DNA of 64,000 bases from Elsinoe ampelina (lineage: Eukaryota). The stretch covers positions 425,533-489,532 of the forward strand of contig ML992515.1 in assembly GCA_010093995.1 (NCBI GenBank), in the 5' to 3' direction. Position numbers and translations under genes: made by a program. Positions 1-63,965 of the stretch are shown piece by piece. Within the stretch, counting starts at the first letter, position 1, and every line of letters begins with the position of its first letter. Below the pieces are notes generated by a model. That model was not told the DNA's origin. It worked only from the letters and a program-made list of their open reading frames with translations, and did not search any database.

Positions 1-26
1 TGCATGGTCACAGCTGACAATCGTAG

Positions 27-32700: not shown

Positions 32701-35290
32701 ATAGCCTACGTAGTTAGCTTAGTCTCCCTTAATGCTAAAGCCTTACTCTACTTTATCCTAGTTAAAATAACCTAAATTGTTATCTTTAGAATACTTATTA
32801 GTCTTATAGTCTAAGCTATATAGGCGCTAACGTGCCTAAGACATCTTAGTTCGTAATAGTTCTAATAAAGAGATATATAGGTATAAGAGAGTTAGTAAGG
32901 TAGGCTAGAATAATATATACTATAAGGGGGATAGATAGTTATCTTATGTGCGTTATAGTAATTTAGCGTTAGTTTAAGTTAGATAATAGCTTAGTTAGGT
33001 ATTTAAAGTGCATAACTTTCTTCTAATTAGAATTAGTTATATCTGCCTATACCCTAAGGTAATCTTAACTAGTAAGAGTATTAAATTAGACTTGTAGCTA
33101 GGTCTAACTCGTAGAGTACTAATTACTAGAAGCTAAACTAAAAAAGAAAGTTACTTAAACTTACTCGGACTAAATACTTAAACTAAATATAGTATTTGTT
33201 ATTAGGTTAAGTAACAATTAGAGTAGAAATACGTAGAGAGAAATTGTAGATTAAACTTAGACCGAGTAATTATATACTAATTTAAAAGACTATAGGAACT
33301 AGCTGTTATATATATAGATAGGTAGTATAATTTATGTAGTAGCTCTCTTATTAATTACGTTAGTAGTCCCCCCTTTGCCAAGTAGTATATCTTCTAAGTG
33401 CTAAAAGCATTAATTGCTTACTATCTCGCTGTCTAGGGTATCTAAATAAGACACGCTAGATAGAGTAGCTTATCTTTTGCTAATTATGTCGTAATAGAGG
33501 GCGAGTGTTAATTAGCTATTAGTAACTATATATAGTAATAGTAGAGTAGCACTATTAGTGTAGCGTCGTATACTCTTGTTTAATCCGAATAAGCCCCTTA
33601 AGACTCTACTAGTAAGGTCCGTAGAGGCGACGCTAAACGCGTAAAAAGCTTTACTAATATACTTCCTAAGTATATCGTTCTCTTACTAGAGTTATTTAAT
33701 TAAGCTTACGTTCTTCTCCGCTATTAATTGTAATTAGCCTACTTCCTACTAAACAAGTATAATGTCTTCCTCTAGGAGTTGCTATCTATTAAGCTATTTA
33801 GGCTACTAGGTCCTATGTCGCTTTTACTAGCTACTAACGTAATTATACTCTTCTCCGTATATATGTAGTAGAGAGCTTCTAATTTAAGCCTCTAGCTAGT
33901 TAGGGAGACTATTAGAAGACTATGCTTTAACACCTAAATAGATAAGAGAAGCCTATATACTTAATCCTATAGTCTAGATGTTAGCCGCTAGAGAAACAAG
34001 GTTAGTATAATTAATATCTATACTTAGGAGCCTAGCCGAAAGATACTAATAGACCTAATAGATTAATAGTAGGAGGATAGATAAGTAATTCCAAAGGGCG
34101 ATTTAGTTAAAAGATAAGAAAGAATAAAGCGTAGTAAACGAACTAAAACTCTAGGGTTTAGTAGTAGGTATAGCTTAGCGTAGATTGCCCTACTACTTTT
34201 TAGTTCGACTTAGTCTACTACCGGACTATTCTCCTTTATGCTTGCTTCGGCTAGATACTTTCCTTAATCTCGTTGCCTTATTAGAATATAAAGAGGTAAA
34301 CTATGTAATATCTTAGACAAGATAATAGCCTTAAACTAGATAGTATTCTCTATTATAGCGAAATGCGGCGTTCTATTGTCCTTCTAACCTATAACATTAC
34401 TTTGCTTATTATATATATAGTAGTCCGTTATAATCGATATTACTCTTAGCTAATTAAACTTAATATCTATATTCTCCTTAGACACGGCAGTTGTAGCTTT
34501 ATAATATATAAGTAGGAGATCTCTAATTAAGTAGATAGGACGTATCTCTCTATCCTTACGAATTACTAATAGTATATTATCTAGTTAATTAGAGAGTAAA
34601 GGCGCTTATAATTGCAATTAGTAATTCGAGGATTTATTCGAGGTAAGTGTATTAGTACTATTCTACGCTCCTCTAGGCTTATATAATCTTAAGTGTAACT
34701 ATACCCGCCGATGTCTAAAATTAGTATTTATCTTATAGATAAGAGCACGGAAGGTAGCTTAACTATTACTACTCTCTAAGAGCTCTGTTATATACCGAAA
34801 CGTACACCGAATATTATTACTATCTAGTGCTACTAGAAGTACCTTCTTCTCTAACCTTCTCCTATTAGAAATCGACCTAAATGTTCTTCTAACTATGCCT
34901 TTGCCTATTATAATATCCTCTAAGAGACTATATAAGTCTCTATAGCCTTTATCGTTAAGGGCGAGAGCTTACTTAATAGCTTTAATTAAGCATATTACTA
35001 GTTAATAAGAAGTAGATATAGGTGCAGCTACGGAGAGAAGGAGAGAGGTAAGAGTAGAAGAGTAGTAGTATAGGTAGCAATTCGGTGCAAGTGTTACTTG
35101 CGATAGATAAGCCTTAGATCTTAGTTTACTTATAAGAGAGACATACCGGAATTATGCTTAGTTATAATTAGTTAGCCTAAACTAACACTTGTAGAACTAC
35201 AAAGTTTAATATACTAAACTTTATCTCCTCTCGGTTTTATTATATGCTTATTATATAGCAATATAACTATATTACAAATACGATTTGTAA

Positions 35291-36055
35291 TAACGCCTTA
35301 GTTCGCGCTCTCCGCTTATACCGACCTAAACGTAGGTATTAGCGTCCCTAGTATAACCTTTTCTCTCCTTTCTATCTAACCTCGATAATAGCTAGCTATC
35401 TATTATAGTAGATTCCTACGCCTAGTACACTACAATTATTAATTGTTATATATACTATAGCGACTCTAATATTTACTTCCGCCTTACTACCGCTACCGCT
35501 TCTAATAGTATTCTCTATACTAGCTACGTCGTGTTTATAGAATTAACTACTACTAGTACCTAGTAGTTACGCTAGAGCAAATCTATTGTAGTATACCTCT
35601 CTATCTTGCCTACTACGCCGCTATAGGCTTAAGAGTGTATAAGGAGACTCCGATACCTCTTTCTCTCTCCCTGCTACTACTGCCCTCTATAGCTTCCTTT
35701 ACACTAGCTATGTATTATTAGTAGAATTAGCTACCGTCTCTACCTAGTAGCTATAACTAAGCGAATCTATCGCAGAGCATCTCCTAATCTTATAGATAGC
35801 GCTACTAGAGGTTCTAGCGTACGTAAAGAGAGTAGAGAAGCTAGCGTCTACCGGGGATTATCTACCTTATAGTATAAGAATATTAAGGAGAGAATTATAG
35901 AGGAACAACTAGTATAATAAAGAGGAAGAGATAGAGGCATATCGCGGGCAAAGATATATCTACTACCTCCTACTAGACAGTAGCTTACTATAGAGAGCAT
36001 TATAGGCGAAGCTATATTAGTAGTATTCTCTTTTATAATTACTTTTATAGCGGAG
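35291..36055. repeat. Direct repeat A, copy 1 (copy 2 at about 42,405-43,170)
   Basis: About 760 bp alignable base by base. Differences are mostly RIP transitions. Confidence 0.9.
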
Positions 36056-36806
36056 TTTTGTTATTAGTAGCGCTTTATTATAACTTTCTCGCGTTAGTAA
36101 TACACTTCTTTCTATGTAGATTATATATCTATTGCTCTAATCCCCCTTCTCTAACTAGTGAATAAAATCTCCTTGTCTAATACGTATAAGTATACTATAT
36201 ATCTTTCTTTATTCCTTGTTATTTGTCTTGTCTCCTGTCTACTATAAAGACATTAAGGTTGTTACTTTACACGATAATACTCTTTATTAAATAGTCTACT
36301 AGCTGTTTAGAGTATATATAACTTTATATATAGTACTAATATGTAAGTGTTTAGTATAGTTAATTACTTCGACACTAATTTTCTATAATAATTAGCACTT
36401 ATAACATTCTCTAATAGCTACGTTTTGTTTACTTACCTAATTTACGCCCTATAATATTTGTTAGTAGTAAACTAACTTATTTACTTTTAGTTCTAGTATC
36501 GACCTAATATTAGTAATTATTATATGTTACTATTAGCACGTACGAAACATAGACTTAGTTAACCTAGTTCACTTTTAGGTTAAGGCCCGAACTAGATCTT
36601 AGTTATAAGTATANNNNNNNNNNTATAGCATTTTAATATTATACTAGGTAGTAGGTATTTATAATTACTGCTATTTGCTCTATAGCGCTTAACTTACTAC
36701 GCTTAGTTCCTAGCTATATAATCTTAACTCCTCTAACCTTACCTGCCTTATATAACGCCTTTACTAGTAGACATTCTTATACTTATTAAATATATATAAT
36801 AGTACT

Positions 36807-38060
36807 ATACCGCCAAAGATAAAGAAGCTAAAGGTCGCTACTAAACCTATAGAAAAGATTCTACTTAATAACCTTATACTAGCTCTTGTTAAGAATGTAC
36901 TTTATAATAATAATGTTAGTAAGAAATCTATCTAATTCTTCTTTAATTAGGATAACTAGTAATACTCTACTACGTTTACGAGGATAAAGGAAATAATCTT
37001 AAAAGTCTTTACAGAATCTAATATTAAAATTAAGAAACAAGATAGAAGCGAGTTACGTAATTCTAAAGTGCTTAAGACACGCTTTAAAATTGAAACTAGG
37101 CTACTAAATAGCACGCCTAACGATTTTTAGCTCTTCGTTAACTAACTAGATTAGAAAGATCTAGACTAGTTTAAGGAGAACTTACGGACTATAGTTAATA
37201 TTAACAAGATAAAAGCTATATAGCGATTATTCCGAAATACTATATAATTAATAAGGGTAAATCTCCTATTAGTTAAAAGGGAAAGGACAACGTTGCTAGG
37301 CGAAGGAGGTACCTAGAGTCTATATCCTTTAGCTACCTCGTCTATATAGACACTAATACTCTTCTAAGTAAGAATACTGTCCTCGGAGAGATATATAACT
37401 TATATAAAGATAGGTAATAAGAGATTAAATTTATATATATAGCCTTGTTATAGAATATTTAGCTTTAACTAGAGGCTAGCGTCTAATTATGTCTAGATCG
37501 ATATTAAATTCGCTACGATCTAGATTATAGAAGTTATCGAAGCGGACACTATCCCGTATCTAATATTAAGAAAGAACATTCGCGTCTACGACTTAAGAAA
37601 GCCTAGTGCTAGCGAGAATAAGAATTGTTACGTTAATTACTACATTAGTAAGCTTAGGTAGATCCTTAACATTAGAGGTAATTACCTCTAACTCTACTAG
37701 CTTAATGCGTATAACTTTGTATAAGTCTTTACTATTAAAGACTCTTTCGATCTAGACGCCGCTATTACTAAGTATGTTATAACTCTTATCCCCGGTGCCT
37801 ATAAGATCTTTCTCTATCTTACTCCTTCTATAGTATTTATTAAAGATCTTCCTAACTTTATACGAAGTAAGTTTACCCCTTCTTTATTTATCTATATATA
37901 CTAACACTTATAGACAACTCTTATTAATATTATAGTAGCTAGCGACTACTTTCTATAGCCGAGGCTACTATAGAAGAGAACTCGGAAGTGTTTCTTACTC
38001 CTAAGAAGCTTCGCTTTATAGATATTAATACTAATAAGAAGCGTAAAGGAGATTAGTAGA
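36807..38060 (+). pseudogene. Unknown gene X, paralogous to about 44.4-45.25 kb
   Basis: Long frame broken only by RIP-type TAA/TAG stops (MPPKIKK...KKRKGD). The segment ATCTTTCTCTATCTTACTCCT near 37.8 kb matches ATCTTTATCTATCTTACGCCT near 45.05 kb. Confidence 0.45.
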
Positions 38061-38299
38061 AAGAGAATATTATAATATAGAACATTTAATACCCGCAATG
38101 GCGACTAAACTACTAAAGGTAAGAGCGGCGATGCTACTATATTTTATTTACTATTACGTTATTTACGAAACTATTTAGTTCTTAACTAATAAAGTTTTAT
38201 TTAGCTTGTTCTATCTCTAAGAGGCTATAGCCTCTATAAATTCTATAATTTCTATTATTGTTATTAGAAGTAAACTTACTTAATAGTTCTATAACTATA

Positions 38300-40720
38300 G
38301 CTAGATAGATTCTAACCGACCTAGCGACTTAGTTTGGAGTATAGTCTTACTTTATATAGTTTTAGGAGAATATAGCTCCTTCTCCCCTACTAGAAGAACA
38401 TAGCCTGTTTAGACTATAGCATATGCCGCCGAGGCGCTATTTATATTCCTACTGCTTTAATAGCTTAAAGAATATTATATAAGCTACTATATACCTAAGG
38501 CCGGCTATCTATCTAGATAAACACGATCTCTCGGAGCTCTCTAATACCTCTCCTAAGTTCTACTTTGTTACTAGTAACTTCCTATAGCTTGCCTAGCACG
38601 CTATAATATATTAGAGTAAAGAGAGTAAGTCTAAGAAGATAACAACTTACTTCTACTAACATAAGATTAACATTGGCATTAAAAAAGTAATATATTCTTA
38701 ATATTATTAATAATAGAAACGAAGTAATACTACTATAGATATAATAGACTAGGGCGTTTAATAATAAGTAAAACAAGTTAGTAGAATAGGATCTTGTCCC
38801 CTATTATAGTAGAAGCGATAGTACAAGTTTTAGTTCTATACTAAACTTAGAGTTAACTAAATTAAATAAGAATAGTATAGTGCTATAAAGGAGCGCGTAG
38901 GTGTTACTACTAATATAGTTATTAGGCTTTACTCTTATATACTAGCAAGGTTTACACGTAGCATACTTAGAAGTTAATAAAGAATTCCCGCTAACTATTA
39001 TTAGTTCTAGCTACTACCTTCTAATAAATAGTAGAGACGCTTTAGATTAGGTTACGCCTCCTAACTAAGTATAAACTTAAGTTAGTTTAGTTAGCCTAAA
39101 ACTAGAGACGAACTTATTTTATGTTAGGGCAGATAAGTCCTTTAAGAGAACGCTATAACGCCTAGCTGTCTTATACTTCTCCTTGTTAGGCAATTGCTAC
39201 TTAGTATTAGTATAGCTCTACTAACTATATACGTAGGTTTAGTATTAAGCTTAATATTCGATATAAGGTTAATTATACTAAGAGAAAGAGATTAGATGCC
39301 TACTACTTAACAAAGGCAGCTTTAATATAGTAGAGCTAGTCTCTATCTATAGGCGGTAAAGACGTATCTATTGCAAAGAATAAGAGAGAATAAACTAGAT
39401 ACGATTTAACTCGATATTACTATATAATATAATAAGAGGTAGCTCTCTATCTATGCGAAGGTAATATAAGAATAATTAAAGCCTATTATAGCCTTCTTTT
39501 CGTAAATATAATAGTCACTTCTCGTTTCTAGTTTAAAATCTTTATATTAGTCCCTATATAGATAGCTAGACTTCTATTTATTCCTCTTAACATGTATCTT
39601 AACCTAATTATAAAATATCTAGTAGCTACGCCTACTTTTATGTCTTATTAGGTTTAAGATATTCCTAACTAGAACTCTAAAGTTTTAATCGAGGATAGAT
39701 ATCTTAATTCTTTAGTAGCACTATATATATAAATTGCTTCGTATATAGAGGAGTATACCTTAACTACGATTATAGAGACGCTATATAGGAGAGAGTAGTA
39801 CGGAATAATATCTATATTTAACAAGCAAAAGGAACCTAGAGGTAATTATACTAGATGTTGTTGCGAGCTTACTTTATTTACTTTGCCGCCTCGCTAGTAT
39901 AGGAAGAGTAATAATATTAATCGACATTATAGTAGGGGCTATAGACACTTCTTAGACTTTATACTCCGAGCCGAAGCAGTAGACAAGTATATAGCTAGCG
40001 CTACGCTAGATTAGAAATATAGGGCCTTTATATTATTATCCCTAAGATTATAGAACAGAAAGCCTATAGTTAGAAGACTAAGAGGTAGTAAGGGATTATT
40101 CGTACGTATAACTCTATAGCGCTAGTAGTAGCTATAGTAGTTAGTTCGACTTAGTTAGTCTAGTTCGGTCGTTACTAATAAGAGAGCTATATCTATAATA
40201 ACTTAAGAGAATCCCGAATAGCTAAGCTATTAGGATCGATAAGAGTACTAAAGTCGTCGTTGTCGATTATAGAGAGAAGTCTATAGTAAGCCGCGTAGGT
40301 ATTATTAGAGTAGCTATGTTAAAGTAAACTTACTTCGAGAAAACTACGCTAGTTAGTTCGTAACTAGGAATAGTATATAGTTCTATAACAAGTAGAGTAC
40401 TAGTACTTCTGCCTTAATAGTGTAACTTCGCTTAACATAAAGTTAGTATATAGATCTAATTATTATAGTAGACTTCCGATAGTGCCTTAGAGAATATAAT
40501 ATTCGCTAGTATAGATATAATAATAGCATTTACGCTTAAGCTAACTATACTATCCTATCGGCCGAAGAAGTAAGTTAACTATAGCTACGATACACTAACG
40601 ATAATATAGAAGGTTATATAAGATAATATAGCGAAGCGGACGAACTAAAAGCATAGTTATTTAAACTAATAGAGGAGTAATAGCAAATTATTAGTTTATC
40701 CTTATTAAGATCGGTTAAGG
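38300..40720 (+). pseudogene. Divergent paralog of the SNF2-like gene with degenerate ATPase motifs
   Basis: Collinear patches shared with 45.3-48.1 kb (AAGCTAACTATA, TAATATAGAAGGTTAT, downstream TCACCTAAAAA..TTTAGTTTAGCG) and an intron-like stretch at an equivalent position. Confidence 0.5.
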
Positions 40721-41200
40721 GAACGCTTATAATTTTCACCTAAAAAGTACTAGTTTTAGTTTAGCGAACTAATCGACTACCTCTAATAGATTAACTATAG
40801 GCATAAACGACCTAATGTTATATAGCCGAGGCGTCTTTATATACTACTATTACTATTTTTTTATAGAGGCTATTTATAACTAACTTATTATAATACTAGC
40901 GACAAGTTAAGACATAAGATAGCAAAAGCTATAAATTGTTTACTAGCTAAAATTATTATGCCTACGCGGCACTCCCTGTTTTACAATTGCTATAAAAGCC
41001 TCTACTAAGGACAATAGCGCGACAATAGCTAATTAAGCACAGTATTTAACATTGTCCTTAAGTAAGGAATAGCCGATAAACCCTGTCGCTCGGATATATT
41101 AGAGTAAACTCTGTCTTAACGTGTCTAGTACTATAGCGTAGATACAATTTTAGCTTTAGTCCGCCGACGCTATATAATAGCTTAGTTCTATTAGCTCTAC

Positions 41201-41669
41201 TACGAATTACAGTAAATAAGAACTAAACTAAGTAATAAGGTAGAAATAATAGCCTATAGCTAGCGTAGAGTGTTCTTCCCTCTTCGCCTACTATATAGTA
41301 TAGTATAGTAGATAATCCTCTTAGTCTCTTTACTAACCTTAACTCTCGACCTCTAGCATATAGAACAGATAGTAATAGTAATAGTAGGCTTAATAGCGAC
41401 GTATACGAGAAAGAGGAGAGTATAGACGAGGTTATAATAGAAAGTATACACAAGAAAGAGTAAGTAATTATAGTAAGTATAACTAGTAGCACGTCTATAG
41501 GGTAGAGTACTAGGAGGTTATCCTTATCTAGTAGAGCTATATCCGATTATACTACATTCGAGATAGTAACTAGTATACTAGCTAGTAGCGAGGAGTTAGT
41601 AATAGATATAGTTTATTCTTAGTTTACGTTAACTAATCTTATCTAGATCTCCCTAAGTCTATAATATAT
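41201..41669. repeat. Direct repeat B, copy 1 (copy 2 at about 48,553-49,021); corresponds to the 5' part of the transposase gene
   Basis: About 470 bp near-identical apart from transitions. ORF-track entries 41223-41492 and 48587-48961 are homologous. Confidence 0.9.
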
Positions 41670-42040
41670 CCTTCGCCCTAAGCAATTAATAAGATATAGC
41701 TTAGCTAGAGACTCTTAGCTCGGCGCTCTAACGTTTAATAAAAGGCAAGCTACTAACTTAGATAGATAATTTTAATTTAAGTTAGGTCGTTATAGTAGAA
41801 GTGCCTTCTAGTAGAATATACTTGCCGTAGACTACTAGCCCCTATATAATGTTCTAACAAATCTACTTCTACCTACGTAAGAGTACTAAAGATATGTCTA
41901 AGTTATACACGCGAAGGCTATAGTAGTCTAACTAATAGCAAAATAGTATTTACTAGTAGGAAGCTTACTCGGCTTAAATTTAGTAGTGTAAATCGTTGCT
42001 TTACTCTATCTCTAGCATGTTATATATAGTAGTAGTAGAG

Positions 42041-42240
42041 GGCAGCCGGCAGGGGACGGCTAGTAGTTTATTACGTCGAACTAATAATTTCTTAGTTCTC
42101 TCTCTCGAAGTTTAAAGATAATCTAAAATTTCGACTTAACCGCGGCCGGTAGGAGATAGCTAGTAGTTTATCGCGTCGAACTAATAATTTCTTAGTTCTC
42201 TCTCTCGAAGTTTAAGGATAATTTAAAATTTTAACTTAAC
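42041..42240. repeat. Tandem repeat, 2 x 100 bp
   Basis: GCTAGTAGTTTAT..CGTCGAACTAATAATTTCTTAGTTCTCTCTCTCGAAGTTTAA recurs with a period of exactly 100. Confidence 0.92.
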
Positions 42241-45200
42241 TAGATTAAGCACTCCTCGGAACTTAATTATATAATGCTATCTAATTATATTCTTCTCTAA
42301 AGTTAGGTATTATATGTTTAGAGACTTATAATCTTTATAGTATTATAAACGTATTATAAACTCTGTTTATAGCGATATAACTACATCGTAGATACGATTT
42401 ACTATAACGCCTTAGTTTGCACCCTCTACTTATACTAACCTAAACGTAGGCGTCGGCGTCCCCGGTGTAATCTTTTCTCTCCTCTCTATCCGACCTCGAT
42501 AATAGCTAGCTATCTATTATAGTAGATCCCCTGCCTAGTATACTACAATTATCTATTGCTATATATATAATAGCAACTCTAACATTTACTCCCGTATCGC
42601 TATTACTACTACTTCTAATAGCATTCTCTACACTAGCTATGTCGTATTTATAGAATTAACTACTGCTAGTACCTAGTAGTTACGCCGGAGTAAATCTATT
42701 ATAGTATACCTCTCTATCTTGCCTACTACGCCGCTATAGGCTTAAGGGTATATAAGGAGACTTCGACACCTCTTTCTCTCTCCCTGCTACTACTACCCTC
42801 TATAGCTTCCTTTATACTAGCTATATATTATTAGTAGGACTAGCTACCGTCTCTACCTAGTAGCTACGACTAAGCGAATCTATTGTAGAGTATCTCTCGA
42901 TCTTATAGATAGCGCTACTAGAGGTTCTAGCGTATATAAAGAGGGTAGAGGAGCTAGTGTCTACTAGGAATTACCTGCCTTATAGTATAAGGATATTAAG
43001 GGGAGAATTGTAGAGAAATAACTAGTATAACAAAGAGGAAAAGATAGAGGAATATCGTAGGTAAAGATACATCTACTACCTCCTACTAGACAGTAGCTTA
43101 CTATAGAGAGCGTCGTAGGCGAAGCTATACTAGTAGCGTCCTCTCTTGCTATTGCCTTCCTAGTAGAGCTAGGCGAGGAATAAAGCGTATTTATAATTAT
43201 ATAGAATGTACTATTAACTGCCCGTTCTACGGAATATATAGTCTTTGCTCTGCTCTGCTACTTAATTCCGCATATAGCAATTATAAAGTCTAGATAATTA
43301 GATAGTAGTATATTACTTTCTTTGTTTCTTTACTAGCATCTATAAGCTATACTATACACTATACATACTATGCCCTTTATTCCGCTATAGGCTGCTAACT
43401 ACCTTCTATTTATGTTCTATTACTATTGTCCTTTATATATAAATACTAGTTTCGCTATTAAAATATTATTTAATTATTTTACGTTAACTGCTACTATATT
43501 CCCTCTATTTATTAGACTATTATCCCTTAAGATCTACCCTAAATACGACAATAGTATCCTTAGTATATACAGCATGTAAAATAAAAGGTAACTAAGTACA
43601 TAGACTATAGTCACTCTTAGTTTAGTGTCTAAACTAAGTAATCTACTATTATATATATGCTATATCTAGTATACTACTATATACTTAGTTTGGGGCCCGA
43701 CCTAAGTCGACTAAATTTAGGTTACTTCTCTCCTTAATTGCTTTAGTTTACCTTTATTTATACTCTCTTATATATAAATAAATAACTTATATAGCTCTCT
43801 AGTATTTCTTTAACCTCTTTAACTTCTCTTTTAAGCGCTCTTTACTTAAATATCTCCTCTTTAGTTAAGTCTTAGTTAGGTATATATCACGAAGTGTATA
43901 GACCTACTATGTTAATAAATCCTCTCTTTAATTCTTTTAAACTTATAAATATATAACACCTTTATAGGATCTCTTCTTTAACATCTACTATACCTACTTA
44001 ATCTATTTACTAGATATTATTCTAAGCTTTATTTATAGCATATACTAAGCTTATAGACGTATATAATATATCTAAGAATTAGCCTAATAGCGCTAGTATA
44101 GCTACTAATAATATTCCGCTCTACAAAAGACCTCCTATAGAAATTTAAGTATAGCTCGATAAAAACCTTAAGATTAAGAGATTCTTCCTTAAATTCTTTA
44201 ACTAGGATAACAACTAGTACGCCGCTATACACGTAAGAGCGTAGGAAGAATATAAGAATACCTATACAGTTCTAGGACTTAAATATAAGGAACCTTAGGA
44301 CAGCAATATTAATATAACTACAATTATAAATAATATTAAAACTTCCCTACGATACTCTTAGAATAACTATATAAAGATCTTCTTTTAAAAACTACACTAT
44401 TAAGACTAAGACTAGTTTAAGAGGAATGTTAGAAACTATAATAATATATCTAGTTATAATATTATTAAAGATTTTGTCCTTACTATTAAGGCGTAAGAGC
44501 TTAGAAATAAGAAGAATTAGACTAAAGTAGATAAGAAGGCTTATTCTAAGAAGTATATTAGAAAGTGCCCCTCCGCTACCTAGTCTAATAGTAGACTCTC
44601 CAAAAGATTAGAGACTTCTATACTTAGTAGCGGACTTATAGGCATAGATATTAATCACTACACTAGTTAGCCTATACGTTAGTAGCAAATACTAGAGGAC
44701 ATGTCTCGTCTAGTCTAGAGCATTATTAATAAAACTATTATTGACTTTATAATTGTTAAGTAATTAGACATTAGCCTAGGCGTAATTATAAAGAGAGGAT
44801 ATTTATATTGTCTATAGGCGTTTAGTCTAAGAATTTTAAGGTTATATCCGAGGAATTATAATTTAAACATATATAGCCTTAACAATATTAGGCTATTCCT
44901 AAAGGAGAAGAAGTTAGTTAGTAATAATATTATCCTTATATAGATAAATTATATAGAGCTATATAACATCCTATCTATCTTAGATAACTACGACCTACGT
45001 GCTACTATAATTAACTATATTAACTCCCTAGTCGAAGGTAGTAATATAATCTTTATCTATCTTACGCCTAGTATAGATCTAGTTAAGAAGCTCCCTAAAG
45101 AAGTACTTTATAAGTTTAATACTTAGTTAGACTTAGGTATATACTAATATACTTAGTTAACTCTCTTTAGTATTATAATAGTTAGAAGCTATTAACTCTA

Positions 45201-45299
45201 GTCTAGGAGGAAGAGGAAGAGGAACCTCTAGCCCCTTTATCTCCGGCTAAGCACCTACTACTACGTAAACCTACCCCTAAGAAGTAACCTAGCTCTCTA

Positions 45300-48060
45300 C
45301 TACCTAACAAGAATAATACTACTATCGACTATTGTCCTACTTAGGTGATAGAAGACAAATACTATAAGTAATACCGAGACAGTAATTAGTATTCCTTTAT
45401 AATTATACCTAGCAAGGAGCAAGTAAGGTACTATATTCTATTAGTCCCTAAGACGCTATCTATACCTATCTTAGCGCTTGTAACTTGTATATTTAATAAG
45501 ACTCTTAGTAGCTCGAACTTCGTTAAACTTTATACTATAAACAACAACGACAATAAGCAAACTAGTAATAATCTAGCTAACTAAAGCTTTATCCCTATAG
45601 GTACTAGAATCGATTACTAGTCCGAAGAGTTCTAGGAGAGAGTCTGTAACTTTATAGGCTTTAAGAAAGATATCTACTTACCGAACACTAGTATATAGTG
45701 TTTTAGTTAGAATAAGAAGTATCTAGTCGAGGTAGCATAGATGTACTTAGCGCTTATTACACTTAAGAAATACCTCGAAGGCTATCTAGTATTTATATTT
45801 ACACATGAGATAGAATTTAGAAAGACTCTAATAGGACTCTTCTTTCTCTTACTAATTTAGAACTTAAATAAAAAGGTTATCTAGGATACTAACTATACTA
45901 CTATACCTAAGGATAAGTAGAGTAAGTACCGGAAGGTAAAGACACTAGTCGACAAGCTATAGCTAGATATCACTTCTACGGATACTATTAGCTATAATCT
46001 AATTGTTAGCGGATTAAACGTAATAAAACAGTAGGCGTAGGAGACACGGAAGTTTATACCTAATATAAAGGTCGTCCTATGCTAGAGAAGAATATTCTAA
46101 GCTATGTAAGAATATAAGTATAGTAATATATATAATATAGACACTTTAATTTGCAAAGAGGATCTACCTATAGGCTACTACTAATAGGAGTCTTAGCTAA
46201 TAAATAAGTCTAGTAAGCCTATTAACACTATTATAGTCTTATAACTAGTCGATATACGTAAGCGACACCCCTAGACCTTATAGATAAATAATTAGTTCTT
46301 CTTTACTACTTGCGACACTATAATCTACTACTTCCTTAGTAAGAACAACATAAACGCTAAGGATTAGAACTTTGTTCCTAAGAGACAAGAGAGAAAGCTA
46401 GGGTCTACGCCTATAAACTAGGCCGCTATTATCTTTAATAAGTTCTATTAGGTTACTAGCTAGAAGACATAGACCTAGTATTATCTAGGAATGCTACTAG
46501 GGAGGCCTTTTATACTAGGTATAAGCGGGACGCTATTTATTAAGTGCTTAAACGTAGTAGCGTTCTTAATAGCGGCTATATATAAGGACTTTAGATTAGA
46601 AAAGCTTAATGTAAATAGAAGTAGAATAGAAGAATTTAATAAGAACTATATCTATAAATCTAAGTAGGAGCTAACTAAGGCTAAGGACAACAAACATTAA
46701 GTAACACTAAAGACAATACTAGATAAGACTTAATAAGCTATTGCTAATAAGCTTAACTTCTAAATAGTATCGGACTATGCCTTTGTAATTAACAAATAGT
46801 ATAAGGCAAACAACAACTCTAGTAAGTTTAATAAAAAGGGAAGTATATAGTTTATAGAAGAGATTATAGTAATAGTCGGTAAATAGAGTACTATTCTTAC
46901 GAATATTCTTATTAAGATAAATATAGACTACATCTAGAAACCTTTCGATACTACTTCTAGTCTACTAGCTATTAGAGTCCTACTATATTCTATCTTCGAC
47001 CTAGAGATCGCTATCGAGGATAAGTATCTTTATAGTCTTATAAATATATAGAAGAAGATTGAACAGGATATAGATAAGAGTATATAAGAGGTAATTAATA
47101 GGTAAAAGAACAAATCTAATAAGCCTAAAGTAATATTAGAGACAATCCTTAATAAGAAGACTAAGAAGTAAATACTAAGCCTAGTTACGCTGCTACTACT
47201 TTTCTCTATGTTTCTCGCTCTTATAGATATATTCTAGAATAATCCCGTAGTTATAGAAGAGTTTGGCGACTTTACTATTAAGTTTATCTACGAAATTATA
47301 TATAACTCCTCGGAGACAGCGCTATAGTAGTATATAGACAAGATCTACGCTAGTCCTTAGATAAAGGTCCTTTATAGTGTTATTTCTAAGATTATTAAGT
47401 AAAACGTCTCCTATTCGAAGGAGCTAAAGAGGTAAGTAATTGTCTATACGTTTATACTGTTAGTACTAGCGGTCGCTACGATAGTTAGTTTAGTCTATTT
47501 AGTCTATTTAGGTTATTGCTAATAAGGGCATAGTATCTAAAATAGCTCGAGAAGCACCTAGACGGCAAAGTAATTAGAATTAATAAGGATACTAATATAG
47601 TTATTGTCTACTATAGAATAACATCTATACTTGCCTATATAGATATTATTAACATAGCTATGTCTAATAATACATTTATTAAACCTAATAGGCCGGAAGG
47701 CTTAAGGATCTTAATTGCCTAGGGTAGAGCTATTAAGACTAGTCTTAATCTAAACCGCTTTAATACTATAATCTTGCTCGATATAGCGTTAGTGTTACGA
47801 TCTGTCCTTTAGTGTCTAGCTTAGGTCCGTAGGAATATTAAGTCTTAGAAAGCTAACTATATAGAGGCGTTTATAATAAAGCTAATAGCTTCGTTCTATA
47901 GGCCTCTAGAATAGCTTAATAGTAGACAGGGTAGGCTATTAATAATATAGAAGGTTATCTACAAGGAAATAGAGAAGTAGAGAGTAAAGATCTAGAAACT
48001 TTAATAAGCTATAGCGAAGAAGAACATAATTGTTATAGATAATAATTAAGATTGCTAGAT
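45300..48060 (+). pseudogene. SNF2-like superfamily-2 helicase/ATPase relic
   Basis: RIP-corrected motif I HEMGFGKT (45,804-45,827), motif II IIFDEFH (about 46,428-46,448), motif III GMSGTP (about 46,518-46,535) and motif V TGLNL..VILLD (about 47.74 kb). Ends are approximate. Confidence 0.78.
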
Positions 48061-48599
48061 AATAGTCTAACTATATCACCTAAAAATGTAATTCTTTAGT
48101 TTAGCGGACTAATTTAGTTCCCTATGTATATTAAACTATCTTTTAGGTCACCTAATATAATATAGCATCTAAACATTTCCTACTTCCTACTATTGCTAAA
48201 ATTTAGCTAGCTAACTCTAACTACAAATTTAGATCTTAAGCGATAAATATAGATATACTAAGGCAAATTAGTAAATGCTTAGCCTATAAGAAGATTATAT
48301 AATCTAGTAGAGGCCTTATCTAACATCTGCCGTATTACTAGAGGAGAGAGCTACTAATAAGTAATATAGTATAAGTCTTACTAGAGTAACGTAGCGATAG
48401 ACATCTACGTAGAGACAATACTAGTAACAATCCTCGCTTGTTTAATAAGGGAGAGCGCTTACTGTCTAATAAAGGCCGATAAGGTAGTATTACTAGTAAT
48501 ATATAATATAGTCTACTAACGCTAAATAACTCGCTAGTCTACTTTACTCCGCTACGAATAACAGTAACTAAGAATTAAACTAAACACTAGAGTAGAAAC

Positions 48600-51500
48600 G
48601 AAAGTCTATAGCTAGTAGAGAGTATCCTTTCTCCTTTATCTACTATATAGCATAGTATAGTAGACAATCCTCTTAGTCTCTTTACTAACCTTAACCCTCG
48701 ACCTCTAGTACGTAGAATAGATAGTAATAGTAATAGTAGGCTTAATAGCGACGTACACGAGGAAGAGGAGAGCATAGACGAGATTATAATAGAAGGCACG
48801 CACGAGAAAGAGTAAGTAATTACAGTAAGTATAACTAGCGGCATATCTATAGAGTAGAGTACTAGGAGGTTGTCCTTATCTAGTAGGGCTATATCCGATC
48901 GTACTACGTTCGAGATAGCTACTAGTATACTAGCTAGTAGCAAAGAGTTAGTTATAGACATAGTTTATCCTTAGTTTGCGTTAACTAATCTTGTCTAGAT
49001 CTCCCTAAGTCTATAATATATACACTAACACCGACGATGAACTAAATCACAATTAGTTAGGTAAGACTTAACTAAAGAAAGCCTTTATTAGCGGCATAGA
49101 CGTAGGTCTTACCTAGTAGCTTATAAAGGAGAAACTTAGTAGAGCCGTAATTACGTAATTACTTAAAGACCTACGTATATAACCTCTAGTAGAGAGCCTT
49201 AGTTAGCGAACTACGAATAAACTAACAGAGAAGATAGAGAATTTAGATACAGGCGGGGGTATTAACGGCTAGTAGACCTTAAGCTTTATACTAAACACTA
49301 ATCGTAGGCCTAAAAGACACACGTTCTAGTATCTAGATATTCTTATAGCGATACGCTTCTTGCTTAGCTATTGTAGTTTCGTAGTAGACATAGACTATAG
49401 CTTATATAGAGTCTTTACGGAAGCTGTCGAGAGTAAGCTACTACGACAAGTATATACTAAAATAGCAAGCAGCGACTAGTAGTAGGACATATAAAAGCGA
49501 CTTAGGATACTAGGGGCTACTATTATCCTATTAATCGTCGCGAGTAATTAGACCTAGGTAATAAACTATTAAGGAGATCTTATAGCATACACTATCTATC
49601 TATTATTAGGTAACCTAAAGGCGGAAGCATATAATAGCAACTACTAGCCGGGGTAGTTACTAATCGGCTTACTTTCTATTATTAAAGATAGTAGCAATAT
49701 TATTAAGGAGAAGACCTACTACGCTTGTATAAAGAAAATCTTTAACGCCGTTGTTAATTGCTACTTAAGAGAGGGCAAAACAATCTTCTATATAGATAGA
49801 AAGAGGTAGAGGTGCTTCCCTATACTTGCTGCTATACCTACGGATTACGCCGAATAGGTTACTATAACCGGTATAAAGTTACTATATTATTGTATAAGTT
49901 GCCTAATCGGTAAGGACGAAAGAGAGGATCTAGTAGTTACTATGCTATTCCGAACTTACTACTCTATATAGCAATAATAGCGCTTATAGAGAGAAGTATA
50001 CGAGAGTTAGTAGCGGAGCAAGAAGATAGATATAAGCTCTTAGGTTTATATAGTTAGTTACTTTGTGTAGGATCTTCCGTATACTAATATTTACTACGTA
50101 ATAGTACTAGATATTCTATACTAACTTCTTAAAGGCGTTTTAATATACGTCTTACGCTAGACTTAAAAATTGCTCTAGGATTTAATACCTATATAGAGAT
50201 TACTACGGTATATAAAGGCTAAAGAGACTATATAGCGAATAGGCCACTAGCGCTCGGTAAAGAAGATTATACTTAATATTATTAACAAGCGTTTCGATAG
50301 TATACTAGTGTTTTCTAGCATTCGATACTTCTTGCACTACTTAGCTATTAAGTAATAGACAGGTTAAGAGTAGAAGAGTATTATGCGCTAGATGCTCCTA
50401 GTATTTATGCTACTACTCGAGGAGGTTAAGGCGCCTTAAGCTATTAAGTTTATACGCGCACTAGTTAACTTTATATTACTAGTAAACTATAAGACCTATA
50501 ACAACGACATACTCCGGTATATTAACCTTACGCTCTTTAGAATAAACAAGTACAAAGAAACCTTCTAGGCCTATTATAGCAATAGGAAAGAAGAAGGCAA
50601 CTTTAACTTTCTAAAATAGCACTTAATAACACATTTTTCGAAGGCTATTTATAATTTTAGAGTAGTTACTAGCCTCGATTCTAATTATTTAGAGTATAAT
50701 TATGTATACTTTATTAAGGACGCCTTTAAACTTACAAATAAGAAGGCTAGATAGGAAGACTAGGTTACTACTTATAACACTAAACTAGTAAACATGTTAG
50801 TAGCATTCGATAACCCCTCGAAGTTAGTTAGGCTATCGGCTACTAAACTAATTAAGATCTAGAGTACGCTAGTTAGCATAAGCGATACAGTGAATGTCAC
50901 TTCTTAGTTTAGCTAGCCTAGCGCTAAGGAGAGAGCTATATAGCGTATAGTAAGAGAACTAAAGGCGCTTATTAATATGCTACCTAGGCTATTACTATAG
51001 TAAGTAATAGCGGTGTTTGTCCGCGAGGCTTGTTAAGGTATAGCCGATATAGGCTCTAACTCGAGAACTAAATACTCTAATTAGTTTAATACTAAACTAG
51101 ATCTCGATAGACTCGAACTAGATTCTTCCTAGGTAAGCAACCTCTGTATTAAGTTCTACTATTCTTTAAAGTGTAGAAAACTATCCGACTATAATCCTAA
51201 TAATCCTAATACGGACGAATAAGACTTTATCTAGTGTATAACTAAATAGTAGAGGATATATAGCAATAAGAGGCAAGACTAGCTCTAGGTATAAGAATAG
51301 ACAACGAACGACAAAGGCACTAACGGAGTATTACCTAATAGCCTATAAGGTAAGTTACTAGCTCGTATTATATTTATAATAACTATAGAGGATAGCTTCT
51401 AGTCTAGTAGATCGGGCCGGCGTTAACGCCTATACTATATAGGAGCGCTAGTAGATCTATATTAGCCTACTTAGCCGGATAGAGTAGCTAATCGAGAGTA

Positions 51501-54097: not shown

Positions 54098-57000
54098 GTA
54101 GCGACCTAACATAGTTGAACTTAGTTTAATACGGAGAAACCTAATATTCTAACTCTCTAGTAGCGCCGATAGTAACTTTATTAGCTAGTATTTTACTATA
54201 CACTATTATATCGCTATCGACCCCTTAGTAGTATACTAAGTACACGGCTTAGACAAATACGAATTAACTACCTATAGATATACTAAGTTAGCCTTTACTA
54301 TTAAGAATAGTAAAGGAATAACATAGGCGTTACGCTAGTAGTTCGAAAGTGTTAATATAACTAGTTACAATCTTATATTAGGCCTACTATAGCTATTGTC
54401 CTATAACTTCGAGATTTAGTAGAGCGCTAGTATATAGAGGCATTATACTAGCGCTATATAGGTGTTAATCCTAGATATACCTTTCTTCTCCTAGGAGCTA
54501 AATTAGTCTAACGCCTAGCTCTATCTAGTATATATATACTAGGACGAACCTAGCGCCCCGACCCTACTATACTAGCTTAATAACTACGTAGACGTTTTAA
54601 ATAAGAGCGTAGTAATAGTACTACCGGGTAATAATTTTACTTACTCTATTAATATTAAAGAGAGAGAATAGCTACTCTAGGGACCTATCTACTCCCTTAG
54701 TAAGAAGAAGCTTTAGGTACTTCGAGAGTATATAGATAATAGCTTAGCGATAGGTTAACTCTAGTATAGTACTAGCCCTACGGGGTCTTCTATTCTATTC
54801 GTTCCTAAGAAGGATAGTTCGCTACGCCTATATATTAACTATTATAGGCTAAATAATGTTACTATTAAGAACTATTACCCCTTACCCCTAATTACTAAGA
54901 TGCTTAATTACATTAAGGGCATATACTTGTTTAGTAAGCTAGACCTTATAGATACCTACTATAGAGTATATATCTAGCATAGCAATAAATAGAAGATAGT
55001 ATTCTACTATTGCTATAGCTACTTTAAATATACTATTATACCTTTTAGCCTTACTAATGCCCTAGCTATATTCTAGACTTATATATATTAGTACTTAAGT
55101 AGCTTAGTAGACTACTACTATATTATATACCTAGACGATATTCTAATCTACGCTAGCGACGAGTAAGAGTATTACTAGGCTATTAGGAGCGTACTAGACT
55201 ACCTACGTAAGAATAGCCTCTATATAAAACTAAAGAAGTATATCTTCGAGATAATATAGGTAGTATTTCTAGGCTATGTCGTTAGTAGTAATAGCGTTAT
55301 AATAGAGTAGCTCTAGGTATAAGCCGTCGCTAACTAGCTTACCTCTACTAGCCTTAAGGAGTTATAAACCTTTCTTAGATTTACTAATTTCTACTATTGA
55401 TTTATTAAGAGCTTCTCCTATATAGCGCTACTACTAACTATACTTATATAAGAGTTAGTCTAAGGGAAGTAAGTAGGCCTATTTCTATAGAGTAACGACA
55501 TATTATAGGCCTTCGATAGGCTTAAAGCTACCTTTACGTAAGTGTCTATACTATGCTACTTTTTATTAGGTAAGCCCCTCCGGCTCGAGACTAACGCTTT
55601 AGATTTTATACTCTCTAGAGTAATTTCCTAGTAAAACAAAAGCGATACTCCTACGCGACACTAGCACTCTATAGCGTTCTAGTCCTAGAAGCTATAAGGT
55701 ATAGAACTAAACTATACTACCTACGATAAAGAGCTTCTTACTATCGTAGAAGTAGCGTAGTACTAGCGCTAATACCTACTTAGCGCTACTACTCTAATTA
55801 AAGTCCTCTCTAACTATAATAACCTTAGGTATTTCCTAACTACTAAGAAGCTTTTATAGCGCTAGGCCCGCTATACTAAGGTACTAGTATAGTTTAATAT
55901 TATTATCTAGTACTATAGTAAGAAGACTAACTTAGCTAATAGTCTATTATATAGGCCTAACTACTATAAGCATAAAGAAGATATATAGAAAGAGCGCTAT
56001 ATATTAGTCTCTCTCTTAGAATAAGCGTTATAAACGCGAAGTAAAGGAGTTATACCTATATCTATTATAGACAAGAAACCTAAGGCTAGTAGGGCCTAGA
56101 AAGACAGTAATAAAGCTAGTATAGCTTATATACCTTAAACTACTCCCTAACGTAACGCGCTTATATAATTCTAGCGTACCTCTAGAATAGCGCCTATAAG
56201 TCTACCTATTACCTTAGGAGCGCTATAGCTATACTAAGAAGAGTTAGAGCCTCTAGAGTAAGAAGAGTAGCGCCTAGAGGACACTTACGCGGACCTTTCT
56301 CTAAGCCTAACTAGTAATATTAAATCGGAACGATATATGTCTACTCTAGTATTCTAGGACGTTCTACTACTCGCCTAGGAGACGCTAGAGAGCTAAGGGT
56401 AAGAAGAAAGCGTAACGCCTATATAACTCTAGGATACTCTTAGTAGAGAGCCTACTATAATTTTAGACTAGAGTTAGTAGATTATATATCTCTACGCTAC
56501 GTAAGTACTAGTAAATAAGACTATATATACTTCTTTTACTTCTATATCGCTCTAGGACCTTATCTATATAGTATAGTAAAGAGACACCTTTACTTATAGT
56601 AAGAAATAGAAACTTCTAAAAGAGAGAACCTTAACTAGTAACAGTGCTACCCCTAAGTAGAGCCTGTCTAGTAATAGCTTACTCCGGAATAGAGATAGGG
56701 TATATATCCTAGAAGAAACTACCTTAAGAGTAGAGCTTATATAGTATAATTATAACAACTCTTTAGGGAGTTACTTTAGCTATATAAAGACCTATCTTAA
56801 TATAAGAAGGAAGTACTAGTAGCTAGGTATGTCTATTACTATAAAAGCATATATCGAGCGCTACGACAGCTACTAAAGGCATAAGGTAACGTAGTATAAG
56901 CCTTATAGCCTCCTATAACTCTTACTAATCCTGCCTATACTCGAGGCCTTATAACACTAGTTACTTAATTTTATTACTAGCTTACCCCTAGTAGAGCTCC

Positions 57001-60000
57001 GGCCTAGCGTTATTATAGACGCAATTATTATGTATATCTATTACTTATCTAAGTTTAGTATCTATATGCCGATGTTAACTAAGCTTAACACTAGAGACTT
57101 TACTAATCTATTTAAAACAGACATTATAACATTGTTTAGAACGCTAAAGACGCTAGTCTTAGATAGAGAGTCTATCTTTATAAGCAAATTCTAGAGTGCG
57201 CTATACTAGCGCTAGAAGGCGTAATATAAGCTTAGTACTAGTTTCTATCCGTAGATAGATAGCTAAACTAAAAGGCAAAACTAGACGCTAGAGTAGTACC
57301 TACGCTACTTTATTAACTATTACTAGACGGACTAGCTATACTAGGTTAAGTAGGCGTAATTCGTGCCTATAACACGTATTAAGCGTTACTATATACTACG
57401 CTAGTGTAGTTCTTATTTATATAGGAAATACGCCTACTTAATAATATTAAGGTACTAGCGCTACCTAGCTACGTACTAGCGTATAACCTATTAGTTAATA
57501 ACTAAGTGTAATCTATTACCGAAACGTATATAGAGCTTGCCTAATACCTATATAAAGCATAGAAAGACTAAACGCTAGCCTATAATAGAGATTAATAAGT
57601 AAAAGTCTTCTATAATAGTAACGAGGTTATACTTAGTACTAAGAACCTTTATAGCGCAAGACCTAGCTATAAGCTATTAGCTAAATACATTAGGCCGTTT
57701 ATAGTTATATAACGAATTAGTACGTAGGTATATAAGCTACGCTTACTAGATAAAATAAAGCTAATCTATAACGTCTTTAACGTTGCGCTACTAGAGCCTT
57801 ATAGGCGTAGTAAGAGTATATACCTACCGCCTCTAGAGGTAGAAGAGCAAGAGAAATATATTATTAAACACATTCTTAATAAGGGCTATACTAGTACCCT
57901 AAAGGCGCTATACTATCTAGTAAAGTAGTAGGGTTACCCTATAGAAGAAAGTATATAGGAGCTAGCAAAAAACCTTATAAACGCTAAGGAATTACTATAT
58001 AAGTACGAGGTAGCTTAGCATAAGTATAGCGCTAGCTAAACACTCTAGATATACTTAGGATTAATAAGTTAAAGGCATAAATCGTAAAGTAAAAAGCACC
58101 TAGGCGTAGCGCTAGGTTAGCTTAGAGTATTATTAGTATATATAGGGGAAACACTAGCGTAGCGAAAACTATAGAATTATACTAAAGCGAAGGGGGCGTA
58201 GTATAGGCGTAGCGCCCTAGCCCTCTCTACCTTAACTATCTATAATATTCTCCTTAGTCTTATCCTTATTATTCTTATTATCCTCCCTAACACTATTAAT
58301 ATACCTAGTTAGCGCCCTCGTAGCGTTATTAATTACCTACGTAGTAGTAGCTTACTTATTCTTAGTAACTACCTATAAGGAAGTTAGCGTAGCTTACACG
58401 TTATAGAGGCATACTTCTAGACTTATATAATTAGTTAAAGCCTTAAGTATAAAGCTAGTATTACTAACTATACTTAGGCGTAGCGCCTTTACTAGCTACT
58501 TAGTATTAACTTTAGGGGCGGAGAGTATAGTAATAGCGCTATTATAGCGTAAAGAAGTTACACTATTACTCTTACTCTTATTAACTACCTTACTCTTGCC
58601 CTTAGTGTTAGACTTGCTCTATATACGCTTAGCGCTAGCCTTCTCGCATATATAGTTAGTATAGGTAGTAATCTAGCACTTTAGGAGAATAATATCCTTC
58701 TTAGAAGTAGTAGCGTCGTTATAGAGTAGTATATATATAGTAAAGTATTTATTCTAGAGCTTCTTAGTAGTAACTTAATTCTTAGAGTTAAGCTTAGTAG
58801 GCTACTAAGGTTAGTATAAAGTAGACACGGCATAGGTGTAGAGTATACCTAGTAGTAGTATTTGTTACTATAACTATAACAATTATAGTAGGTAGCCTTA
58901 GCCTTAGTAATCTAGTAGAGAGAATTCTTAATAGGGAGTATACTATCTTTAAGCTAAAAGTACTTATCAATAGCAATAGCGTAGCGTAAGTATAGTATAG
59001 AGTACTAGTTCTAGTTAGTAAAATCGCTCTTATAAGGTCTATAAAAGGTTAGCGCTAGCGTAGCGTAAGTACTATATATAATACTTACTCCTTAGGGATT
59101 TTAAGAGCTATAGTTATTAAAGTACGTAAGCGTATAGGAGGTAAGCTAGCGTAGGGCTAGAATAATAAAAGAAATTTTTTTTTGCTACGTAGGTACTATA
59201 CTAGGTTAGTAAATAAACAACTAAATAGACAAGCCTAATAGCTAGATCTATAGTAGCGTAGGCTTAGTATATACGCTAAGCCTCCTCTACTAGCCCTTAG
59301 GCTAGTAAGACCTAGTCTATACTATATAGCACCTAAAATAGATTACTAGTATAGTGTTAGACCTACGTAAGTATAGAGCTAGTATTAAGTAGAATACTTA
59401 CGCGAAGGAAGTATTATAAAGGAGAAAAGAAGGAGAGAAGGAAAAGAAAAGGATATATATCTAGCTCTAAGCTAAGACTAATCTAGAGAATAATAGGTAG
59501 TAGTATACGACAATAGATAGATTCTTATATATAAAGATAATAACATAAGAGCGCTATATTCTACATGTAAAGAATCTATACTATCGCTACTATATCTAGC
59601 ATATAAAGAATAATACTAGCTAGTATAAGCGCGCTATACGTACAAAGAGCGTACTATACCTAAGAGGCGCTAGTAAGACGCTCTTTCTTAGTTTTCTCCT
59701 ATACTAGGTTTTCTAGGTTTTATTAAGGCTCGTAGGCGCAAGGGCGTACTCTCTAAAGAGGAGAAATAATTATAAGAACTAACGTAGTAAGTATATTACG
59801 CTAGCTTATCTCGGAGATACTATTCCCTATAGAAGAATAAAATACTTTTCGCCTATATAATAGATAGAGTAGAGATTAGTCTTACGACAATCGAGGGTAC
59901 ACTAGTGTAATACCTGTTCTACTCCTATATACTTATCTTCCTAGCTCTAATATTCTACCTTCGTTACAATTAGCTAGATATTACAATTTACTAATAATTC

Positions 60001-63000: not shown

Positions 63001-63774
63001 TAAATATAGTCTTAATATAGTATAGAGGGAGCCTAAACTTATCTAGTTTAGCACTAATAGTACTTACTCTTTGCTCTATAGTAATAGTGTATTAATAATA
63101 GTACTTTATAAAATCTTTATAGTACCTTTAGGTGTTATAACTTATTATAATTACCTTATTAAGGTTATAGATAGCTATATATAGCTTATATAAAATAACA
63201 AGTTTAAATATAGCTTTAATAGTATCTAGAAGTTCCTTTAAAGTCTTCTAAGTTGTACTATAGTAAGGTCTAATAGATTTATAAATCCTTATTATAATAA
63301 TACTATAAGCAATTCTATTATTCTTATACTAGGTCTTATTCCTAACCTTATAGACTACCTTAGTGCCTTTACTAGTATCTAGGGCTAGTTCTTTAGGCTT
63401 TATAACTACTAGTATCTAGTTAATACTATAAATTATATATCTAAGTATATCCTTTTTAAGGAGGGCTACCTTAAGGGTTAATCTCTAAGTATTATAGTTA
63501 CTTTCTCTCTTAAGAATCTAAGTCTCGAGCATTTTTGCTAATCTAAATATAATAATAGTAATTAGCTAAAGGCCTATTAATTTAATTAATATAATTAGCT
63601 TGTTTAAGCTATTTAAGCCGTTTAATTAAAGGGTTAATATAGGCTACTATAAGTGTTTATCTTAATATAGCTAGTCTAGAATTTAGTGTAGGCGGCTTAG
63701 TAATCCTTTTAATAATAATACGCTTAATTTGCTATAGCTTTAAGTGCTTTTATAGAAGCGCCGGGCTTATAACC

Positions 63775-63916: not shown

Positions 63917-63965
63917 CGATCTGGTCATGCACGAACAAACTCTCTTTCCATCATTCTCAACCAAA

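Follow-up and report, generated by a model that had tools for sequence, protein, structure and literature searches.

A likely relic of an SNF2-like ATPase gene upstream of a Plavaka-type transposase in an AT-rich repeat nest of Elsinoe ampelina

We analysed a stretch of 64,000 nucleotides of Elsinoe ampelina (contig ML992515.1 of assembly GCA_010093995.1), called the window here, and focus on its positions 45300-48060. This region is likely the relic of an SNF2-like ATPase gene. With somewhat less confidence, we consider that the gene probably formed part of a transposable element of the Plavaka type. Taken jointly, the two parts of this reading, a divergent gene of the SNF2-like ATPase kind and its carriage by a Plavaka-type transposon, have a probability of about 0.5. 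The gene would encode an SNF2-family ATPase of superfamily 2 (SF2) and would have lain inside a cut-and-paste DNA transposon of the CMCT clade, on the same strand as the transposase gene and between the 5' end of the element (42352) and that gene (domain at 49216-50142). Such an element would have been duplicated, then hit by repeat-induced point mutation (RIP), and further decay would have left both genes dead. In this copy, the SNF2-like gene and the transposase gene are both dead. The surrounding DNA, from ~19 kb of the window on, is a RIP-mutated, AT-rich fungal repeat nest. Its G+C content is 0.16-0.39 up to the window end, compared with ~52% over the first 19 kb. The RIP indices TpA/ApT and (CpA+TpG)/(ApC+GpT) are 1.7-2.4 and 0.13-0.31 in the AT-rich part, 0.53 and 1.3 in the GC-rich flank, and 1.79 and 0.31 in the region of interest.

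RIP introduces C to T and G to A changes only. Because of this restriction, the DNA was scored with codon likelihoods taken over all ancestral codons. The RIP rates in the likelihood were chosen by us (0.8 in CpA/TpG context, 0.15 elsewhere), and the codon likelihoods were compared with the columns of protein profiles, relative to a random RIPped protein. Ungapped blocks were chained across any forward frame with a fixed penalty per jump. The bacterial SNF2 profile was built from 30 bacterial loci found with PF00176 plus E. coli RapA, and the mixed SNF2 profile from this bacterial set and 33 fungal RAD16 proteins. A DEAD-box decoy (30 loci), the reversed mixed SNF2 profile and a RAD16-only profile were used as controls. 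The null set consisted of 38 segment-strands of 3.5 kb from the repeat nest, with 45000-48500 on the forward strand as the segment containing the region of interest.

With the mixed SNF2 profile and a jump penalty of 12 bits, this segment scored 52.4 and ranked first of 38 (z 7.0). The median of the other segments was 24.7, and their maximum, 37.3, came from a segment overlapping the region. The bacterial profile at the same penalty gave 44.2, again rank 1 of 38 (z 4.2); adding the fungal RAD16 proteins thus lifted the score from 44.2 to 52.4. Lowering the penalty to 8 left the segment in first place among the 38 with both the mixed (98.4) and the bacterial profile (88.7). None of 150 dinucleotide-preserving shuffles reached 52.4 (mean 28.2, sd 3.9, maximum 40.7). 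As controls, the DEAD-box decoy (24.8, rank 30 of 38, z -0.85) and the reversed mixed profile (26.2, rank 24 of 38, z -0.09), both at penalty 12, did not single out the segment. With respect to these two decoys, the likeness is SNF2-specific. At penalty 12 the RAD16-only profile reached 37.7 (rank 11 of 38, z 0.6). The second-best SNF2 region of the window is 27000-31000 on the forward strand, where segment 27500-31000 scores 35.7-39.3 at penalty 12; this region is within the noise range and has no similarity to the two repeat units described below.

The two RecA-like lobes were also scored apart, on 148 windows of 1.5 kb, with the N-lobe covering motifs I-III and the C-lobe motifs IV-VI. For the N-lobe, windows of the region took ranks 1-3 of 148 (37.3, 36.1 and 32.7; median 15.5, sd 3.7). 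The next best score was 23.4, from the windows at 27000-29000. The C-lobe scored 19.6 (ranks 5-7 of 148; median 15.75, sd 2.0) and is not significant alone. The motif names follow those in use for SNF2 proteins and the consensus of the local profiles; frame 0 is the forward frame starting at 45000. The motif-like stretches are as follows:

45795-45827, forward strand: candidate motif I (Walker A, G.GKT), IFTHEIEFRKT against LLADDMGLGKT, 14.7 bits in the RIP-aware score; read by eye as THEIEFRKT at 45801-45827
45999-46139, forward strand: motif Ia block, LIVSGLNVIKQ*A*ETRKFIPNIKVVLC*RR..., 30.8 bits, the strongest block
46413-46475, forward strand: candidate motif II (DEFH), with IIFNKFY (46428-46448) against LILDEAHSIKN, 14.6 bits
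46521-46538, forward strand: candidate motif III, ISGTLF (SGTP, P to L by C to T), read by eye in frame 0
47729-47782, forward strand: motif V block, AIKTSLNLNRFNTIILLD against AGGVGLNLTEADRVIIYD, 16.8 bits
47576-47593, 47726-47752 and 47762-47782, forward strand: C-lobe-like strings RINKDT, RAIKTSLNL and NTIILLD in frame 2, read by eye

The strings read by eye fit motifs I, Ia, II, III and V once RIP-type C to T and G to A changes alone are undone; for example, three such reversals turn IIFNKFY into IIFDEFH. In the best chain, motifs I, Ia and II lie in a single frame, frame 0, and in the correct order, and the blocks of this chain other than those listed look like noise. The motif III string is too weak for inclusion in the best chain, whichever of the two jump penalties is used. 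The original prediction had placed motifs I, II, III and V of an SNF2 ATPase here in their proper order. The N-lobe ranks bear this out for motifs I and II, together with Ia, and motif III can be read by eye. Motif V is unsupported on its own, because the C-lobe just ranks 5-7 of 148. The results therefore support the presence of the motifs I, Ia and II (III by eye) of the N-terminal RecA-like lobe, and these are present only when RIP changes are modelled. The mutation-aware comparison shows that RIP-decayed genes that are invisible to Pfam can be partly recovered.

Stop codons were counted per frame. The following stretches each have one depleted frame:

43900-45099, forward strand: frame 1, 26 stops in 400 codons against 67 and 37 in the other frames
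45100-47199, forward strand: frame 0, holding the SNF2-like N-lobe, 50 stops in 699 codons against 79 and 98
47200-47899, forward strand: frame 2, holding the C-lobe-like strings, 14 stops in 233 codons against 27 and 32
48100-48899, forward strand: frame 0, 19 stops in 266 codons against 29 and 47
49000-51399, forward strand: frame 1, the transposase, 65 stops in 800 codons against 93 and 85

From 43.9 to 47.9 kb, successive single frames have about half the stops of the other frames. This asymmetry is at least as large as that of the verified transposase relic, and unit 1, one of the two repeat units treated below, has no such asymmetry. The stretch at 43900-45099 may represent a part of the ATPase relic that extends it at the N-terminal side, or else the remnant of another open reading frame. 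The counts bear on an alternative, namely that the region is plain non-coding AT-rich repeat DNA in which the motifs are pareidolia. No open reading frame is left in 45300-48060, where the longest on the forward strand has 64 amino acids. The stop frequency of the best frame, 7.3% (44 stops in the 600 codons of frame 0 in 45600-47399), differs little from the 8.2% that base composition predicts. We nevertheless hold this alternative to be very improbable. It is opposed by the frame-specific depletion of stops over 2.1 kb (50 against 79 and 98), by the ranks of the chain score and of the N-lobe, by the shuffles, and by a similarity between the two units that is seen at the amino acid level (47366-47977 against 40022-40636, 32% identity, E 5e-13).

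We turn to the element that may have carried the gene. The features concerned are the following:

49216-50142, forward strand: Plavaka transposase domain, RIP-damaged, PF18759 with E 2.5e-29 and 103 bits (cut-off 26.3), profile positions 5-317 of 325
42352-43147, forward strand: 5' head of unit 2, 86% identical by blastn to 35238-36034 (686 matches, 101 transitions, 9 transversions)
48519-49061, forward strand: tail common to both units, just upstream of the transposase domain, aligned with 41167-41709 (447 matches, 71 transitions, 25 transversions)
35238-41715, forward strand: unit 1, a colinear copy of head, middle and tail seen in blastn and tblastn matches, which has no transposase domain

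The transposase domain corresponds to residues 406-714 of the frame starting at 48001. The SNF2-like relic lies ~1.2 kb upstream of it, on the same strand, and both are RIPped. The statement of the original prediction that the ATPase is co-oriented with the transposase and upstream of it is supported by this match. In self-comparison, the two colinear units are spaced by ~7.1-7.35 kb, and the order of head, ATPase-like part and tail is kept in both. Their similarity opens abruptly at the sequence TATTATA, at the same base in both, with none upstream. This 5' boundary is compatible with a RIPped CATCA (PlavakaB) or TGT (PlavakaA) terminus. At the other side, the tail (86% by blastn for 41167-41669 against 48519-49021) possibly represents the 5' part of the transposase gene. 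Its high similarity ends at ~49023 and weak similarity to unit 1 continues to 49082, that is, ~130-190 bp before the transposase domain. Unit 1 appears to be older or more decayed than unit 2, and there is no third copy of the unit in the window. The claim that the relic is transposon-borne is upheld in part: the shared strand and the sharp boundary common to two colinear copies speak for it; the 3' end, inverted repeats and target-site duplication, which were not found, and the transposase in one copy only, do not.

Some further features of the units were noted. The 636-bp spacer between units 1 and 2 contains a tandem repeat of ~100 bp in about two copies (42041-42250). Across 35238-49082 the units diverge unevenly, with transversions at 1% in the head, 5% in the tail and 20-26% in the middle; this could result from gene conversion in patches or from a mosaic origin. 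The 797-bp repeats were considered as long terminal repeats (LTRs) and rejected: similarity fades gradually past the repeat end, no reverse transcriptase was found in either strand and no polypurine tract was seen.

Several results weigh against an SNF2-like gene in a Plavaka-type element, some concerning the gene and others the element. For the gene, the standard searches come first, in which translations were read through stops as X. With E <= 1 as the limit, Pfam was empty in all three forward frames of 45000-48500 and in all three reverse frames of 43100-48600. The Pfam gathering score for SNF2 (PF00176 SNF2-rel_dom and PF00271 Helicase_C) was not reached in these frames, and Pfam found nothing in 43100-45100. 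Searches of the Protein Data Bank (PDB) with phmmer returned no match at E <= 10 for 47312-48100 and only two unrelated matches (E 1.4) for 45660-46700. Likewise, frame 0 of 45600-47399 had no phmmer match at E <= 0.001 among 1.84 billion representative proteins. In plain hmmsearch (--max) with the local SNF2 profiles, the region obtained just -6.8 and -6.9 bits, and the motif Ia block was the only stretch reported (-6.8 bits). The same search recovered the host RAD16 fragment at the window start with both SNF2 profiles (nt 25-243, 59.5 and 95.4 bits). A word-indexed protein search of the region was blank as well; it also missed the Plavaka part that Pfam sees clearly, so that with RIPped queries its negative outcome tells nothing. 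The C-lobe is not significant, the chain score is home-made, with RIP rates set by us and with two jump penalties and two SNF2 profiles tried, and the binomial p-values for stop depletion (1.8e-6 for the main segment) are too good, because the segments were picked after viewing the sliding counts.

These points would suit a decayed open reading frame of some other transposon protein, whose SNF2-like motifs would be partial chance or a generic P-loop likeness. Every library search was blank, most of the score stems from one 47-residue block (the 30.8 bits of motif Ia), and the supporting statistic is our own. Such an explanation has to face the first rank among 38 with two independently built SNF2 profiles, when the DEAD-box and reversed profiles were negative. 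It also has to account for three blocks (I, Ia and II) that share a frame and follow the expected order, and for 150 shuffles of which none reached the score. We therefore judge it unlikely.

The depth of decay was examined by simulation. Twelve RAD16 proteins were back-translated and RIP was simulated down to a G+C of 0.31. After RIP alone, 62-66% of the residues were kept, and with the bacterial profile the genes still obtained 87-131 bits when searched by plain hmmsearch, and chain scores of 175-204. When 20-30% random substitution and 1% indels were added (eight proteins per setting), the chain score fell to 39-91 and the plain score was mostly near zero. The doubly decayed SNF2 genes thus span the range observed in the region. 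RIP alone fails to explain the blank searches, because it leaves 87-131 bits in the simulation and the neighbouring transposase has 103 bits; this also counts against the SNF2-like reading. Either the protein was very divergent, or this part decayed more than the transposase. Given the 103 bits that the transposase retains after comparable RIP, the ancestral ATPase was presumably far from canonical SNF2 proteins. Extra decay beyond RIP is real, because many transversions separate the units in their middle: between unit 1 and unit 2, 151 of 764 aligned bases differ by transversion in the C-terminal part, compared with 9 of 796 in the head. By codon position these transversions between the copies number 49, 47 and 55. 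There is no third-position excess and, without such a codon-position bias, no sign of past purifying selection, a further point on the opposing side.

For the element, the opposing results come from unit 1 and from the ends. Pfam found no transposase domain in unit 1, and only unit 2 has one. In the forward frames of unit 1, no Pfam family passed the threshold, the one sub-threshold match being to Pif1_2B_dom (E 0.26). The SNF2 chain score of unit 1 is 29.4 at penalty 12 and not significant, and no counterpart of motifs I-III could be aligned in it; its C-lobe scored 20.0 (rank 2 of 148). An inverted partner of the unit start, sought at 85% purine/pyrimidine match, a 3' end and a target-site duplication were not found. 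TATTATA is frequent in RIPped DNA. In addition, one old local duplication could explain both units, because they adjoin each other.

The relic may be real and yet foreign to Plavaka: part of another repeat, or a captured or adjacent fragment of a host gene, that was co-duplicated with part of the transposon or beside which the transposon landed. The transposase domain in unit 2 only, the end of unit 1 636 bp before the start of unit 2 and the lack of element ends would agree with this, and so would a possible mosaic origin, as transversions reach 20-26% in the middles of the units, far above the 1-5% of head and tail. The room left for such an arrangement is small, however, as the ~130-190 bp between tail and transposase domain would have to hold both an element end and the N-terminal coding part. 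The sequence after the tail of unit 1 resumes nowhere downstream and has no match elsewhere in the window, including the DNA downstream of the transposase. As to a host origin, the RAD16-only profile ranked the region 11 of 38 (z 0.6), and the relic is therefore not a copy of the neighbouring host RAD16. We consider a foreign origin improbable, and favour a divergent SNF2-like gene that belonged to the Plavaka-type element.

This reading can be compared with known systems. The available parts of Kojima (2025, PMC12730594) give the termini of Plavaka elements as TGT..ACA (PlavakaA) or CATCA..TGATG (PlavakaB), with a target-site duplication of 2-3 bp. According to them, PlavakaB carries a TET/JBP dioxygenase; the reconstructed PlavakaA and PlavakaB families come from Agaricomycotina, and Pezizomycetes are noted to have families with TET as well. 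As far as these parts of the source allow a comparison, the present element resembles Plavaka of the CMCT clade in its PF18759 match far above the cut-off and in its unit start TATTATA, the expected RIP product of the published termini. It differs in that the extra gene of the published elements is a TET/JBP dioxygenase, whereas here an SNF2-like relic is seen and the 3' end, inverted repeats and duplication were not found. The word SNF2 does not occur in the text of PMC12730594.

An SNF2 helicase in DNA transposons has precedent. Bao and Jurka (2013, PMC3627910) cite Kapitonov on two transposons, Inton and Enton, that are said to encode an SNF2 helicase. By this one-sentence citation, the Elsinoe case would be alike in having an SNF2-type helicase beside the transposase of a DNA transposon, thought to aid transposition. 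A literature search on the names Inton and Enton gave no further relevant paper. Helicase is also counted as an accessory domain of fungal DNA transposons (PMC5751038, PMC3627910), and Muszewska (2017, PMC5751038) used such domains as a filter for these elements. Helitron with its Pif1 helicase and Academ with a RecQ-type one are likewise mobile elements with their own helicase-like ATPase. Their helicases are SF1 Pif1 or RecQ-like and not SNF2, and the DEAD-box decoy finds nothing here. Literature searches that combined Plavaka, EnSpm or CACTA with SNF2 turned up no account of a Plavaka or fungal CACTA element bearing an SNF2 gene. Within the reach of these searches, the pairing of Plavaka with an SNF2-like gene is apparently unpublished, while a DNA transposon with an SNF2 helicase is already in print.

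The window also contains an SNF2-family gene of the host and further repeats. Two of these features are listed here:

1-252, forward strand: C-terminus of host RAD16, an SNF2-family repair gene, last 84 codons, cut by the window start and assigned by its best database matches
54801-55892, forward strand: Gypsy-type reverse transcriptase/RNase H relic, RIP-damaged, downstream of the Plavaka relic (RVT_1 E 2.8e-12, RNase H E 7e-15)

Where it aligns, the RAD16 fragment shows 100% identity with RAD16 of both Elsinoe batatas and Sphaceloma murrayae, which puts the genome within or close to Elsinoe (Dothideomycetes). The relic shares the superfamily motifs with this Rad5/16-like gene; the host gene is intact and GC-rich, whereas the relic is RIPped and repeated. 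By eye, no RING-like Cys/His cluster was seen in the relic, and the RAD16-only rank gives no indication of a Rad5/16-like member. Beside RAD16, in the GC-rich flank, lies an intact open reading frame of 562 amino acids (783-2471, forward strand). The LTRs of the Gypsy relic, including a 5' LTR that was sought to bound the Plavaka 3' end, were not found in the window.

Direct repeats occur at several scales in the nest. A pair of 162 bp (19131-19292 and 63757-63917; 140 matches, 20 transitions, 1 transversion) flanks the entire 44.6-kb AT-rich block and could represent the LTRs of an outermost element or a RIP-hit duplicated host segment. Repeats of 173 bp (21199-21371 and 28480-28652) share 93% identity and are spaced by 7.3 kb. 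The element that they delimit, 21199-28652, is probably an LTR retrotransposon, and its part 23464-23822 has 72% identity to 54792-55150. A third pair, of 199 bp with 94% identity and 30.7 kb apart (29043-29241 and 59773-59971), surrounds both Plavaka-like units and the Gypsy relic.

In its active era, the ATPase of the favoured Plavaka-type element may have been an element-encoded helper. Most likely it would have moved along double-strand DNA as a translocase, loosening nucleosomes or other complexes of protein and DNA at either the donor or the target site, and this loosening would let the transposase work in packed chromatin. That it opened heterochromatin or counteracted silencing is a guess, if a reasonable one, drawn from the parallel with the TET/JBP dioxygenases that other Plavaka elements carry against methylation-based silencing. 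A tentative suggestion, which we rate as rather doubtful, is that a Dothideomycete lineage of Plavaka-type elements had an SNF2-type chromatin motor of its own, highly divergent, which served as a helper or against silencing.

DNA transposons with their own chromatin or epigenetic tools show the answer of mobile DNA to host silencing. If the suggestion is true, an SNF2 motor would be a second, mechanical counter-measure in the Plavaka group beside the TET/JBP dioxygenases. The dead copy described here does nothing, and its value is that of a pointer toward intact relatives. If the reading holds, intact members may persist in relatives with weaker RIP, and the idea of an SNF2 motor would be testable in a living element.

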